A DNA stretch of 64,000 nt from Patescibacteria group bacterium (GTDB lineage Bacteria > Patescibacteriota > Patescibacteriia > Patescibacteriales > JAQTRU01). Location of the stretch: NCBI GenBank assembly GCA_028716725.1, contig JAQUPG010000005.1, positions 2,453 through 66,452 of the forward strand, in the 5' to 3' direction. The position numbers and the translations under genes were made by a program. Below the pieces are notes generated by a model. It saw nothing but the letters and a program-made list of their open reading frames with translations, was not told where the DNA came from and did no database searches. Shown piece by piece: positions 10,025-55,832 of this stretch; position 1 is the first letter of the stretch, and each line of letters starts with the position of its first letter.

Positions 10025-10744
10025 TTATTTTTTCCTGCCCTCAATGTAAAAACTATGAGATAAAAACATAGAAACAGGGAATAGCAGGTTAAAAACTTTA
10101 AAAATTTTATATTTCAGGATAAAATCCGTTAAAAAATTTAAACTTCCCGGAAAAAAATAGATACCTTTAAGTTTTACTTCGAAAAAATTATTTTCTTTCA
10201 GCAAACGCCTGAAATTAAACGGGTTATACCTTTTTGGCGATATTCTTTTACTCTTTCTAAAAATGGGGAACAAAGAAAAACGATTTAGAGTATGAATTGT
10301 CAGTAAACCGTCTTTTTTCAATACTCTCCTCATTTCAGAGATGGCGGTTTCATGATCTTCAACGGTCTGCAACACTCCTAAACAAATTATCTTATCAAAA
10401 TAATTATCTGTAAACGGCAGATTATAGATACTGGCTACCTGATAATTTATATTCAAGTTTTCGGATTTTCTTTCCGCAACTTTTATAACTCCCGGGCTGA
10501 AGTCCACCCCGTAAATCTTAAACCCCTGGCGAGCCAATATTTTTGAAAATACCCCCGGACCACATCCGATATCTAATACTAACATCTGCGAATTATCGCC
10601 TTTTATACACGGTTTAAAATACTGTAAAAAATATTTAATATATGCTTCCAAGCCTTCTTTGCTCCAAATTGAAATTTCATAATCTTCATTCTTTGAATCA
10701 GCCATTTCCGAAAATTTATCTTTCCAATAGTTTTCGAGCTTCAT
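10025..10744 (-). CDS. Class I SAM-dependent methyltransferase
   Basis: Motif I VLDIGCGPGVFS, followed by the usual acidic and hydrophobic motifs (VDFSPGVI, DKIICLGVL). Confidence 0.85.
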   Translation of the reverse strand: MKLENYWKDKFSEMADSKNEDYEISIWSKEGLEAYIKYFLQYFKPCIKGDNSQMLVLDIGCGPGVFSKILARQGFKIYGVDFSPGVIKVAERKSENLNINYQVASIYNLPFTDNYFDKIICLGVLQTVEDHETAISEMRRVLKKDGLLTIHTLNRFSLFPIFRKSKRISPKRYNPFNFRRLLKENNFFEVKLKGIYFFPGSLNFLTDFILKYKIFKVFNLLFPVSMFLSHSFYIEGRKK

Positions 10745-19704: not shown

Positions 19705-19738
19705 TTAATTACAGAGTTAACTCTGTAATTAAATTATA
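19705..19738 (-). promoter_or_regulatory. 28-bp perfect palindrome (candidate operator) abutting a TATAAT box
   Basis: TTAATTACAGAGTT|AACTCTGTAATTAA at 19705-19732, 13 nt upstream of the ATG at 19691. Minus-strand TATAAT at 19738-19733 lies immediately upstream. Confidence 0.5.
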
Positions 19739-28305: not shown

Positions 28306-29400
28306 TCATCCTGTCCAATAAAAAGCCATAATGCTTAAGTCAATGATATTTATGATTCCGTCGCCGTTCAAATACGTGGCTTCATACGCCCGCATCGTAT
28401 CATTCAAAGTCTTTTTGTACCAATAGCCGGCGATGGAAAAATCAATGATGTTCACGCGGTCGTCTCCATTCAAGTCGCCCTGTTTGAGGGATTCGGTCTG
28501 ATCATAAGGAATATTTTTTTCTCCCACCACGAATCCGATAGTGCGGCTGAAATCGCTGATACTATTGTCTTTGGCCGATTTTGCTCTCGTTTCGTGATCG
28601 CCCTTAACTAAAAGGGCCGTGTCTAAATTATAAAGAAAAACACCGTCATTGTCGGCATTAACGGTATGAAAAGTTTCATTATCCGAAGCTACCCCGATAG
28701 TCACCTCGCTTTCAGGAACGGTTTGGCCGAATATTGCCAAGTTATCGCCCTTGTGCACCTCTTTTTTATCAACCGCCAAAGTCGGGGACAGAAAAATTCC
28801 CCCAACCTGCGTTGTAAACCCAGAAGTAACCTCAATAGTGAATGGCTGGAATTGCGACATTCGGTCGTCTTTATCCAGGCCGACAATAACGAAAACATGG
28901 CTGCCGACATTGATGCCGCTTAGTGTAATAGAAAAAAGGGCGTCCGGTCCGGCTATGGTTGTGCCGACAACCTGTCCGTCCTTAAGTAGTCTGACCGTGC
29001 TTAAAGGATAAGCCCGGCCATTAAAGGAAACTCCTGCTTCGGCCGGCGATGTCAAACTGCCACCACCCCCTCCGCCACCGCCATTATTATTATTTTCAGT
29101 GGATATTTCTTCACTGGAAGACTCTTGGGTCAGAGCCCAAACGCGCCCTTGTTTTATCTCATAATTAGCGCTAGTAGAATTTGTCGCCGCAGGCAGTCCA
29201 ATTGCGGCTTTCACATCATAATTATCAGAATCTGTTTGTAACTCAACAAACCCCATAGATCCCTGGTCTATCAGGTAATGTTCACTAGTGGCTGAAGTGG
29301 CGGCGATGGCAAAGAATGGAATAATAATTATGTACGCGAAAAAAATTAAAGGAATTACAATTGGAACCCAGGCACTGGGTTTTTTCAGTAATGATTTCAT
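28306..29400 (-). CDS. Secreted protein with Ig-like repeats and a C-terminal type-I dockerin
   Basis: N-terminal hydrophobic signal/anchor, an N4-G8 linker, and two duplicated EF-hand-like segments: GDLNGDDRVNIIDFSIAGYW and YLNGDGIINIIDLSIMAFYW. Confidence 0.7.
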   Translation of the reverse strand: MKSLLKKPSAWVPIVIPLIFFAYIIIIPFFAIAATSATSEHYLIDQGSMGFVELQTDSDNYDVKAAIGLPAATNSTSANYEIKQGRVWALTQESSSEEISTENNNNGGGGGGGGSLTSPAEAGVSFNGRAYPLSTVRLLKDGQVVGTTIAGPDALFSITLSGINVGSHVFVIVGLDKDDRMSQFQPFTIEVTSGFTTQVGGIFLSPTLAVDKKEVHKGDNLAIFGQTVPESEVTIGVASDNETFHTVNADNDGVFLYNLDTALLVKGDHETRAKSAKDNSISDFSRTIGFVVGEKNIPYDQTESLKQGDLNGDDRVNIIDFSIAGYWYKKTLNDTMRAYEATYLNGDGIINIIDLSIMAFYWTG

Positions 29401-30152: not shown

Positions 30153-30242
30153 TGGCGGAAGGACAGGGATTTGAACCCTGGAGACCCGTTAAGGTCTACT
30201 TGCTCTCCAAGCAAGCGCACTAGACCACTATGCGATCCTTCC
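30153..30242 (-). tRNA. tRNA-Ser (anticodon GGA), CCA encoded
   Basis: Hand-folded. Acceptor GGAAGGA/TCCTTCC, 3-bp D stem, anticodon stem CTTGC/GCAAG with loop TTGGAGA, long variable arm AGACC-TTAACG-GGTCT, T arm CAGGG-TTCAAAT-CCCTG, discriminator G plus CCA. Confidence 0.85.
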
Positions 30243-30265: not shown

Positions 30266-30811
30266 TTACATAAACAAATTTGCGGCATGATTTCTGTTCA
30301 ATTCCCATTTTAAAGGATTATTTATGATGTATTGCCTGATATTATTTAATTCCTTTTCATTTCTTATTATTCTGTCATAAAACCTGGCTTGCCAGGCAAA
30401 AACAATATTATTACTTGTACAGAATTTTTTAACCCCGATTTTAAATCCGCGAATTATGGATGATAAATTTTTTGATTGCGGTCCTAATTTATTCTGATAT
30501 CCTTCCTGTAGGAACACAAAATTTTGTGTTCCTACGTTTTGTGTTCCTACATTTTCAATTTTAATTATCCCGTGAATATGATTCGGCATTATAATAAATT
30601 CATCTAACCCTACAAATGGAAAATGCCGTGGTATTTCTAACCAAAACCTTTCTGCCGCCCTACCGATTTTTGACAATTGCATTTTTTCATTCACAATATC
30701 GCCAAAATATAATTCACGATCTTTTGTGCAAATTGTTACAAAATACAATCCATCTTTAGAATAATCATAACCCTTATATCGATATTGTTTTTTATCTTTG
30801 TATTTTTCCAT
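30266..30811 (-). CDS. IS200/IS605-family Y1 HUH transposase, REP-associated tyrosine transposase (RAYT)-like
   Basis: HUH motif MPNHIHGII and a Tyr-helix region WQARFYDRIIRNEKE. ATG at 30811 is preceded by AGAGGAGGGGT. The longer track ORF would overlap the gatA 3' end. Confidence 0.75.
   Translation of the reverse strand: MEKYKDKKQYRYKGYDYSKDGLYFVTICTKDRELYFGDIVNEKMQLSKIGRAAERFWLEIPRHFPFVGLDEFIIMPNHIHGIIKIENVGTQNVGTQNFVFLQEGYQNKLGPQSKNLSSIIRGFKIGVKKFCTSNNIVFAWQARFYDRIIRNEKELNNIRQYIINNPLKWELNRNHAANLFM
30508..30550. repeat. Three copies of the 14-mer GTAGGAACACAAAA (one forward, two inverted) forming a 28-bp perfect palindrome inside the transposase ORF
   Basis: gtaggaacacaaaa|ttttgtgttcctac at 30508-35, then g ttttgtgttcctac at 30537-50. 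In frame, encoding NVGTQNVGTQNFVFLQ. Confidence 0.85.
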
Positions 30812-30822
30812 ACCCCTCCTCT

Positions 30823-30846
30823 GGGAACACAAAATTTTGTGTTCCC
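30823..30846. repeat. 24-bp perfect palindrome GGGAACACAAAATTTTGTGTTCCC (REP-like hairpin)
   Basis: Shares an identical 22-bp core with the palindrome at 30508-30535. Lies between the gatA stop (30873) and the transposase start (30811). Confidence 0.85.
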
Positions 30847-30872
30847 TACTTTTTGTATAATCAATTAAATCT

Positions 30873-32327
30873 TTAAGTCTCCGGTTTCTTCCCGTCCCAC
30901 TCCGTCGCTTTCTCATACGCGTTCCCGATTCTGAAAAGCATTCCCTCATCAAATCTTTTCCCGATTAATTGCATGCCAACGGGCAAGCCGGAAGAAAAAC
31001 CGCAAGGGATGGATACCGCCGGCAAACCGGCTAAAGAAGCGCCGGTGACAAAAATATCTTCCAAATACATTTTTAACGGGTCATCTGATTGCTCGCCTAT
31101 TCTAAAAGCCGGACTAGGCTGGGTCGGAGTAATAATCGCGTCTAATTTTTCCAGTTCAAAATCCAACTCTTCTTTTATTTTCGTCCTTACTTTTTGCGCC
31201 TGCAAATAATAAGCGTCGTAATATCCGGCAGATAAAACATAAGTGCCAAGCATTATCCGGCGCTTGGCTTCCGGCCCAAATCCTTTGCCCCGGCTCTTTG
31301 TATAAATTTCTTTCAAATCCTTGGCTTCTTTACTGGATAAGCCATATTTAACGCCGTCAAAACGGGCTAAATTAGAACTGATTTCCGAGGGCGTAATTAT
31401 ATAATAAACCGGGATGCCGTATTTAGCATAAGGAAGTTTTATTGGTATAATTTTTGCCCCCAATTCTTCCAATTTAACTATGGCTTTTTCTACCGCCTCC
31501 TTTACTCCTTTTTCCAGGCCCTGGCCGAAATATTCCTCCGGCCGACCGATTTTTAAACCCTTCAAATTTTTTTCCAAAAATTTCCCATAAACCGGGACTT
31601 CCATGTCCGGAGTGGTAGCATCGTTTTTGTCATGCCCGGCAATCGCTTCTAAAACTATGGCGGCATCTTCTATGGTCTTGGTTATGGGCCCGGGAACGTC
31701 AGTTGAGGAAGTCATGGCTATTAGGCCAAAGCGGGAAGCACGGCCATAAGTCGGCTTTAGGCCGACTACTCCGCAAAAACTGGCCGGGCACCTGATTGAC
31801 CCGCCCGTGTCAGTCCCTAAAGCAAAAAGGCACATATCCGCGGCTACGGCCGCGGCTGACCCGCCCGAAGACCCGCCCGGCACGCGTGTTAGGTCCCAGG
31901 GATTATGAGTTGGGCCAAAAGCGGAATTTTCCGTCGAAGCCCCATGGGCGAATTCATCTAAATTAGACTTAGCTAAAAGGATGGCTCCGGCTTCTTTCAA
32001 CTTTTTTATGATCGTAGCGTCAAAAGGCGCAATGTAATTTTCTAAGATTTTTGAAGCCGCTGTCGTTTTTACGCCTTTCGTTAAAATATTGTCTTTGGCT
32101 ATATAAGGAATGCCTAACAAATCTCCTTTTTCACCCCTGCTGCGCCGTTTGTCCGCCTCTTTAGCTTCTTTTGAAGCTTCTTTTTCACAAACCGTTAAGC
32201 AGGCTTTAATTTTTTTATCAATTTCCTTAATCCGCGCCAAACAGGCCTTAGTCAGTTCCGCTGAGGTTATTTCGCCTTTAGCCATTTTTTGACTAGCCTC
32301 TTTTATAGTAAGCTCATTCAACTTCAT
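30873..32327 (-). CDS. gatA: Glutamyl/aspartyl-tRNA amidotransferase subunit A
   Basis: 484 aa with amidase signature GGSSGGSAAAVA and a conserved GatA pattern throughout. Downstream of gatC. Confidence 0.95.
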   Translation of the reverse strand: MKLNELTIKEASQKMAKGEITSAELTKACLARIKEIDKKIKACLTVCEKEASKEAKEADKRRSRGEKGDLLGIPYIAKDNILTKGVKTTAASKILENYIAPFDATIIKKLKEAGAILLAKSNLDEFAHGASTENSAFGPTHNPWDLTRVPGGSSGGSAAAVAADMCLFALGTDTGGSIRCPASFCGVVGLKPTYGRASRFGLIAMTSSTDVPGPITKTIEDAAIVLEAIAGHDKNDATTPDMEVPVYGKFLEKNLKGLKIGRPEEYFGQGLEKGVKEAVEKAIVKLEELGAKIIPIKLPYAKYGIPVYYIITPSEISSNLARFDGVKYGLSSKEAKDLKEIYTKSRGKGFGPEAKRRIMLGTYVLSAGYYDAYYLQAQKVRTKIKEELDFELEKLDAIITPTQPSPAFRIGEQSDDPLKMYLEDIFVTGASLAGLPAVSIPCGFSSGLPVGMQLIGKRFDEGMLFRIGNAYEKATEWDGKKPET

Positions 32328-38262: not shown

Positions 38263-38554
38263 TTCATAAATATAGACAAAATACCCTTATTCCAAATTAG
38301 CGTGGCAAGAAACCACGCTAATTTTTATACCGAAAGCCGTTCCGCTTTAGTGGGACGGACCGGTATATCCCGGCGCTTCGGCGAATGAATTCTTTTTAAA
38401 ACCATTAGAAAGGAGGCGAAGCCGCTATTTTTTTAAAAATTTTGGAAACTAAGAAAGGTTTTTGGAAGCGGCGGGATATGAAATTTAGCGGGCAGGTTAG
38501 CCCGCAAAATTTCATAATCTGATTTCTTATTTATCTTATTAAAACAGCGAATAT

Positions 38555-55764: not shown

Positions 55765-55777
55765 AAAGTATAAAAAT

Positions 55778-55812
55778 AAAAAACGAAGGCAAGAATCGCC
55801 TTCGTTTTTTAT
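55778..55812. terminator. Bidirectional rho-independent terminator between convergent rel and the YqeY-like gene
   Basis: AAAAAACGAAGGC-aagaatc-GCCTTCGTTTTTT: a 7-bp GC core stem extended by A/T pairs, with U-runs on both strands. Confidence 0.7.
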
Positions 55813-55832
55813 TATCTGAATAATTCTTTATC

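Follow-up and report, generated by a model that had tools for sequence, protein, structure and literature searches.

A REP palindrome translated within its own transposase gene at a conserved Patescibacteria locus

How does a gene come to carry, inside its own reading frame, the hairpin that its product is predicted to recognize, and does that hairpin serve any purpose there? The question arises from a 64,000-nucleotide stretch of contig JAQUPG010000005.1 (assembly GCA_028716725.1) of a Patescibacteria group bacterium, hereafter the window, in which the gene for a REP-associated tyrosine transposase (RAYT, also TnpA_REP) contains a perfect repetitive extragenic palindrome (REP) and is preceded by a second copy of its core. 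We conclude that the locus is very probably a REPtron of TnpA_Y1 subclass 2.4, in which a gene for a HUH/Y1 single-strand DNA endonuclease, present in one copy and inherited vertically, is accompanied by the GTAG-tagged REPs cognate to it. The subclass was defined by Quentin, Siguier, Chandler and Fichant (2018, BMC Genomics 19:475, PMC6006769) and corresponds to RAYT Group 4 of Bertels, Gallie and Rainey (2017). A first-pass annotation of the window had called the in-frame hairpin odd; a REP inside the RAYT open reading frame (ORF) is instead a hallmark of subclass 2.4 published in 2018, and the window gene is an ordinary new member.

Two copies of one hairpin at a RAYT gene

The 22-mer GGAACACAAAATTTTGTGTTCC occurs exactly twice in the window, once within the ORF (30511-30532) and once in the 5' leader (30824-30845), as the first-pass annotation had recognized. 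No further copies were found in the 64 kb with up to three mismatches allowed, and 100 shuffles gave no match. The 11-nt half, TTTTGTGTTCC, is present five times, always within the two hairpin sites, including once at 30537-30547. The internal copy extends to a 28-nt perfect palindrome, at just the positions first assigned to it, with the layout GTAG-GAACACAAAATTTTGTGTTC-CTAC and therefore a double foot. Beside it lies an extra 15-nt arm, a direct repeat of 30522-30536 that accounts for the third half-copy seen earlier. On the coding (minus) strand the order is left arm, left arm, right arm, and two alternative hairpins are possible; the extra arm can pair with 30507-30521, and the minimum free energy structure uses this outer arm. 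Folded as single-stranded DNA, the internal REP yields -13.9 kcal/mol (z = -6.6). The ORF remains intact throughout: the REP and the extra arm encode residues V88-L101, and the translation first proposed, NVGTQNVGTQNFVFLQ, is correct for residues 87-102.

The upstream palindrome (30823-30846) folds with -10.4 kcal/mol (z = -4.6) and has a single foot, GTAG on the 5' side of the coding strand (CTAC at 30846-30849 on the plus strand). Next on the coding strand comes AGAGGAGGGGT-ATG, the interval before the start codon (30812-30822) being one nucleotide shorter than the 12 nt originally counted. Similarity between the two copies spans 36 nt (30497-30532 versus 30810-30845, 89%) and comprises the hairpin, AGGAGG/AGGAAGG and TAT. 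The repeat thus runs 14 nt beyond the palindrome (ACAGGAAGGATAT versus AGAGGAGGGGTAT), and the internal copy continues into a purine run resembling a Shine-Dalgarno sequence. We asked whether this extension, which the first-pass annotation had not mentioned, might reflect duplication of a longer unit or act as an internal ribosome-binding site, and judged it probably coincidental, given that its tail encodes a conserved E-(G/E)-Y-Q-N-K, that it is weaker in the closest relative, L085, and that no start codon follows; the purine run is probably a by-product of Glu and Gly codons.

The encoded protein is a RAYT-type HUH/Y1 enzyme, as had been proposed from the sequence. It matches the NCBIfam equivalog model REP_Tyr_transpos (NF047646) with 59.6 bits and E=3.1e-16 over model positions 6-138 of 146, and a profile of 44 homologues searched against the PDB returned a single match, E. 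coli TnpA_REP (4ER8, E=2.5e-5). We also obtained an AlphaFold model of the protein (mean predicted local distance difference test score, pLDDT, 79.6), for which the top Foldseek match was 4ER8_A (E=1.3e-6, template modelling (TM) scores 0.55/0.60, 21% identity over the structural alignment); the transposase structures of IS608, ISDra2 and IS200 ranked behind it. Databases contain over 6,400 relatives of the protein, and an identical database protein, from Patescibacteria group bacterium, is labelled 'transposase'. Homologue N-termini, which read MxKYKDKKQYRYKGYDYS in the protein alignment, fit the ATG at 30811, and a longer ORF with a TTG start, reaching up to 30952, was rejected as the RAYT gene.

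In an alignment of the 44 homologues (A1), H80 of the HuH motif is invariant and H78 nearly so, and W140, Q141, Y161 and N165 are all invariant. In a hidden Markov model (HMM) alignment to 4ER8, R150 falls opposite R104 of the E. coli enzyme. The assignment to subclass 2.4 is based on these motifs and on the type of REP. All of the testable sequence features of the subclass were present in the window, save that the flanking REP stands on one side alone.

Table 1 Coordinates of features at the RAYT locus, in window positions
Feature	Position	Strand	Remarks
RAYT (TnpA_REP) gene	30266..30811	minus	181 aa; ATG at 30811, stop included; from ORF list, homologues, NCBIfam and fold
Intragenic double-foot REP	30508..30535		28-nt perfect palindrome GTAGGAACACAAAATTTTGTGTTCCTAC; in frame, V93-L101 plus first base of Q102 codon
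Extra 15-nt REP arm	30537..30551		Tandem duplicate of 30522-30536; second left arm on coding strand, encodes VGTQN
Upstream REP	30823..30849	minus	GTAG foot plus 24-nt palindrome GGGAACACAAAATTTTGTGTTCCC; 5' leader, 26 nt past gatA stop, 11 nt before ATG
Shine-Dalgarno-like GAGGAGGGG	30813..30821	minus	Between upstream REP and ATG; conserved in L085 and L089
HuH motif NHIH	30572..30583	minus	Residues 77-80; matches subclass 2.4 motif NH[IFV]H
'WQ' motif	30389..30394	minus	W140-Q141; aligns with E. coli TnpA_REP W94-Q95 (HMM alignment to 4ER8)
Y motif YIINNP	30314..30331	minus	Residues 161-166, predicted catalytic Tyr161; matches subclass 2.4 YIxNNP
tRNA-Ser(GGA)	30153..30242	minus	ARAGORN; Rfam tRNA 55.4 bits; downstream neighbour, outside element, within conserved synteny
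gatA	30873-32327	minus	Upstream neighbour of RAYT; gatC upstream of gatA

The same loop in relatives near and far

To compare the hairpin across the family, we collected 80 homologue loci from many phyla and read their DNA, of which 56 could be parsed for a palindrome count. Perfect palindromes with arms of at least 9 nt were counted in the loop after the HuH strand, a total of 13.9 kb of sequence. Such a palindrome was found in 38 of the 56 homologues, with arms of 9-25 nt, whereas fewer than one would be expected by chance (an estimate from the rate in shuffled windows, scaled to 13.9 kb); 24 of the 38 have a double foot. The hairpins follow the consensus GTAGRGAC-(variable inner stem)-GTCYCTAC, in which the outer stem is conserved. 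Among 14 aligned hairpins pairing is 100%, with 6 of 12 pairs altered on both sides, and where the peptide changes from G/F to E/S or from T(ACA)/V to T(ACG)/A, the change is a base-pair compensation. The first-pass annotation had suggested that homologues with an equivalent but non-palindromic segment, together with absence of the palindrome from the rest of the genome, would point to coincidence; the homologue segments turned out to be palindromic, each with its own inner stem. The hairpin specific to each locus also recurs outside the loop: 12 loci have it within 400 nt upstream of the gene, 11 within 400 nt downstream and 9 at a greater distance.

The reading frame restricts how the hairpin is placed. 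The codon phase of the GT[AG]G foot could be assigned for 27 hairpins, with 19 in phase 0, 8 in phase 1 and none in phase 2, the phase that would put TAG in frame. One palindrome type read in two phases gives unrelated peptides, for example VETLHATSL and RDVACNVST. In the protein alignment, the stretch that follows HGII ranges from 0 to more than 100 columns, and most members show VGTQNFAFL, VETQNFASL or a similar sequence in it. Homologues that have no palindrome (such as L009, L020, L024 and L035) have a loop about 12 residues shorter, so that the segment behaves as an insertion, a possibility that the earlier reading had proposed to examine by alignment. The structure model of the window protein has a strand at residues 78-85, no secondary structure at 86-110 and a helix at 111-133, with pLDDT below 50 for 90-110; the REP-encoded residues are thus predicted to lie in a low-confidence surface loop that joins the HuH strand to the following helix.

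A second site was noted in one homologue, L088, where the REP-like near-palindrome CGTAGGAACGCAAGATTTTGCGTTCATAC (10115-10145, peptide VGTQDFAFIQ) occupies, in frame, the loop between beta2 and beta3 at about residue 40. The same beta2-beta3 insertion is visible in the protein alignment for P0021, and these cases suggest that the gene has more than one REP-tolerant site.

The gatA-RAYT-tRNA order is common to the window and two relatives, L085 (84% amino acid identity) and L089 (72%), which indicates that the RAYT gene has been vertically inherited at a fixed locus. The family is present in Patescibacteria at a conserved gatA-RAYT-tRNA-Ser locus. In L085 the internal 28-nt palindrome is identical to that of the window and has three left arms versus two, and the upstream REP, GGGACACAAAATTTTGTGTCCC, is changed in both arms relative to the window and retains a perfect palindrome. 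The REP segments of the window and L085 are identical at 44 of 45 nt, compared with 88.6% for the rest of the coding sequence and 78% at third codon positions; based as it is on one sequence pair, this difference is suggestive of nucleotide-level constraint on the hairpin. In L089 (3440-3620 and 3860-3900), the ATG is one base out of frame (ATGAAAAA versus ATGGAAAAA), and the annotated gene begins at an internal TTG; its upstream REP and its internal REP are both degenerate. L089 may represent a decaying REPtron or a sequencing error.

No second RAYT gene was found in the window. Together with the synteny in relatives, this supports the earlier description of the gene as a domesticated, single-copy RAYT. 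A scan of metagenome contigs for the 22-mer returned two contigs, L082, with the sequence inside a more distant RAYT gene, and L081, with a solo extragenic copy; this hairpin variant is thus rare and low-copy. The L081 copy (2845-2872) is the same 28-nt palindrome with no RAYT gene within 3.7 kb, and the TAG of its GTAG foot is the stop codon of a gene for a RluD-like pseudouridine synthase. Few repeat copies have been reported for RAYT Group 4, and REPtrons are known from species without REP families. The identical locus is present in two independent NCBI assemblies, so that the intragenic palindrome is unlikely to be an assembly artefact.

The position of the gene between gatA and tRNA-Ser(GGA), given in the first-pass annotation, was confirmed, with 23 nt separating the RAYT stop from the tRNA gene. 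We considered the tRNA as an integration signal and rejected this, since a tRNA lies within about 150 nt of the gene at only 2 of 60 other loci (L003 and L049); its closeness is probably incidental. In a scan of 29.5-31.5 kb against Rfam, the tRNA alone scored above threshold, and weak plastid and miRNA matches on the hairpin, which fell below threshold, were set aside as noise. Two genes downstream of the tRNA, a 364-aa ORF (28306-29400, minus strand) encodes an N-terminal membrane segment, a NNNNGGGGGGGG run and C-terminal dockerin-like DxNxDG repeats, and the same protein follows RAYT in L083 and L084. Two close homologues with 66-69% amino acid identity, P0005 and P0012 (L087 2507-3082 and L088 10001-10594), lie within type I restriction-modification operons, a setting unlike that of gatA and tRNA-Ser; one follows a WYL-domain gene and is itself downstream of hsdS (Methylase_S), and the other stands between an hsdS-like gene and hsdR. 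Elsewhere in the window, an unrelated 28-nt perfect palindrome, TTAATTACAGAGTTAACTCTGTAATTAA, occupies an intergenic gap between minus-strand ORFs (19705-19732); it has the same length as the REP, no GTAG foot and a single occurrence. Long hairpins at 55775-55813 and 38294-38324, with 16- and 12-bp arms and flanking A- and T-runs, resemble bidirectional intrinsic terminators.

Origin of the internal REP and competing explanations

As shown by Corneloup et al. 2021 (PMC8266576), enzymes of Groups 2 and 3 require both the hairpin and its GTAG motif for binding and cleavage, and they cut at CT (or CA) adjoining the REP on its 5' or 3' side. The enzymes of E. coli, S. maltophilia and Marinomonas have been shown to bind the hairpin through the GTAG foot and to cleave and rejoin alongside it. 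By analogy, we infer that the window enzyme would bind its folded single-stranded hairpin through the GTAG foot and would cut and rejoin beside it. Such cleavage and rejoining, or slippage at the hairpin, may have put a REP into the enzyme's own gene and changed the number of arms, the survivors being only those versions that are in frame, free of stops and placed in a loop that tolerates extra residues. The notion of a self-targeted insertion, raised in the first-pass annotation, is thereby supported, and such insertions have been described for TnpA_Y1 subclass 2.4 by Quentin et al. 2018.

Several results weigh against this account of the locus. The NF047646 score lies below the curated cut-off of 80, and a Pfam-A scan of the RAYT protein at E<=0.01 gave no match, including none to Y1_Tnp. 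Its identity was therefore taken from NCBIfam together with the PDB profile and fold searches, and the protein appears to be a divergent relative of the sequences behind NF047646. The gene has a REP on its upstream flank alone, with no hairpin found between the RAYT stop and tRNA-Ser, and the window contains no dispersed REP copies with up to three mismatches, so that there is no sign in it of current REP spreading by the enzyme. In the literature searched we found no assay of any subclass 2.4 enzyme, and cleavage of the window hairpin is accordingly proposed by analogy. Finally, the persistence of perfect palindromes across deep lineages and the near identity of the REP between the window and L085 are not predicted by a purely passive, tolerated insertion.

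The last of these points leads to the alternative that survives best, a possible but unlikely one in our judgement, according to which the intragenic hairpin is a maintained cis element that lets the enzyme sense or control the gene encoding it. During replication or transcription, while the gene is single-stranded, the enzyme would bind or nick the hairpin; alternatively, translation would be limited by a hairpin in the mRNA. Changes of arm number in steps of 15 nt would then tune or switch the enzyme. This explanation agrees with the finding that 38 of the 56 deep-branching homologues have perfect palindromes, with stems that have changed on both sides. Also consistent with it are the contrast, between the window and L085, of the REP (44/45) with the rest of the gene (88.6%; third positions 78%), the perfect pairing retained in the L085 upstream REP despite changes to both arms, the difference between two and three arms in close relatives, and the coincidence in L089 of a start-codon frameshift with degenerate REPs. 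However, about one-third of homologues have no palindrome and the loop is short in a Bacteroidota group, so that the element is dispensable, and the position of the hairpin within the loop, its copy number and its sequence are all variable. Recent re-insertion or gene conversion with flanking copies would explain the perfect pairing equally well, the conservation test concerns one sequence pair (estimated p about 0.03), and upstream copies lie at variable distances from the ATG, from -18 to -302. Somewhat more doubtful still is the fuller proposal that the in-frame REP is an actively maintained self-recognition site serving autoregulation, with gain and loss of a 15-nt arm as a reversible in-frame switch. 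If true, it would account for the persistence of a palindrome in one loop across phyla, for its conservation above the rest of the gene and for its seeming decay when the gene is broken (L089).

We consider it improbable that the palindromes are kept for the host, as a 3' hairpin that ends or stabilizes the gatCA transcript and blocks antisense transcription, with the match between copies incidental to the transposase. The upstream copy does lie just past the gatA stop, both hairpins (30507-30546 and 30823-30856) are terminator-like on the plus strand, antisense to RAYT and followed by T-runs, and REPs have been reported as RNA elements downstream of coding regions (PMC3733652). On the minus strand, from which gatA is read, the hairpin is nevertheless followed by AGAGGAGG, with no T-run, and this explanation leaves the in-frame copy, the GTAG feet and the pairing of each RAYT with its own hairpin in unrelated contexts unexplained. 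A host role could apply to the upstream copy in addition to the REPtron explanation.

An active insertion sequence of the IS200/IS605 type, with the two hairpins as its left and right subterminal ends, is very improbable. The fold is common to the TnpA proteins of IS608 and ISDra2, and two hairpin copies do lie within one small region. The second hairpin is inside the ORF, however, so that the pair would enclose no more than the N-terminal half of the gene. Past the stop codon no hairpin is present, in keeping with the earlier remark that a second IS200 end is not evident, and the 64 kb contain a single copy and no tnpB. Furthermore, relatives with 84% and 72% amino acid identity have the gene at the same gatA-RAYT-tRNA-Ser position, and the Y motif is Y---NP (class 2) rather than the IS200-type Y---Q.

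Selection on the peptide VGTQNF[AV]FL, or chance, can hardly explain the repeat: VGTQNFAFL or VETQNFASL does recur in the protein alignment, but a single DNA palindrome read in two codon phases yields unrelated peptides (VETLHATSL versus RDVACNVST), the changes from G/F to E/S and from T(ACA)/V to T(ACG)/A are compensatory at the base-pair level and the segment is modelled as disordered, so that the phase and covariation data effectively refute the peptide explanation, and the expectation for the 22-mer by chance is zero.

With the REPtron explanation retained, the locus offers a compact test case for the function of RAYT proteins. In this small, streamlined genome, the hairpin is visible in the window in only two copies, both at the gene that encodes the enzyme, so that the enzyme, if it acted on its cognate hairpin at all, would be acting on itself. 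The locus adds little by way of discovery, given the 2018 report; what it contributes is the codon-phase restriction, the variation in arm number, the compensatory changes, with the hairpin appearing to be kept at the nucleotide level, and the conserved synteny in Patescibacteria.

Comparison with known systems

The closest system is subclass 2.4 itself. As described in PMC6006769, the subclass carries the motifs NH[IFV]H, WQ and YIxNNP, its proteins have a median length of 194 aa, and an insertion of variable length and sequence separates beta3 from alphaC. Its REPs are long or of the 'double foot' type (5' GT[AG]G ... C[TC]AC 3'), and REP insertions are in frame, between HuH and Y, in a peripheral extension of the modelled structure. 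In the REPtron arrangement, REPs flank the gene within +/-1000 nt. The window gene shares the three motifs, a length near the median, the variable insertion after the HuH strand with short DNA repeats in the variable region, a 'double foot' REP, the in-frame position of a REP between HuH and Y, and a low gene copy number with few dispersed repeats. It differs in its host, a metagenome-assembled genome of Patescibacteria (candidate phyla radiation, CPR), whereas the article names Cyanobacteria, Bacteroidetes and 'various phyla'. It differs further in having a REP on the upstream flank only and no dispersed copies in 64 kb. The gatA/tRNA-Ser synteny, the variation in arm number among near relatives and the restriction to two codon phases are apparently not reported in the text of that article consulted here.

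E. coli TnpA_REP of REPtron Ec (4ER8; Ton-Hoang 2012, Messing 2012, Corneloup 2021), which belongs to subclass 2.2 or Group 2, shares with the window system the HUH/Y1 fold, residues W94, Q95 and R104 (W140, Q141 and R150 in the window protein), a REP with 5' GTAG and a single-copy gene. Its HuH motif is DHLH and its Y motif YIHYNP, in contrast to the window protein, and its REPs are bulged, imperfect hairpins present in hundreds of extragenic copies, with none inside the gene. The TnpA proteins of IS200/IS605 elements (IS608 and ISDra2, subclass 1.1) share the catalytic fold and the principle of recognition of a single-stranded hairpin with a 5' guide tetranucleotide. These elements are, however, multicopy and mobile, with hairpins outside the gene at both ends, Y---Q and often tnpB, none of which applies here.

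Palindromic repeats in frame within protein genes are also known from Rickettsia palindromic elements (RPEs) and other REPs, as cited in Di Nocera et al. 2013 (PMC3733652). These resemble the window gene in that a palindromic repeat is translated in a tolerant region of a protein that is probably still functional. Those insertions lie in unrelated target genes and, in the case of CGTC-type repeats, lack a dedicated enzyme, whereas the gene that hosts the repeat in the window encodes the very enzyme predicted to recognize it, and the site recurs across the whole family.

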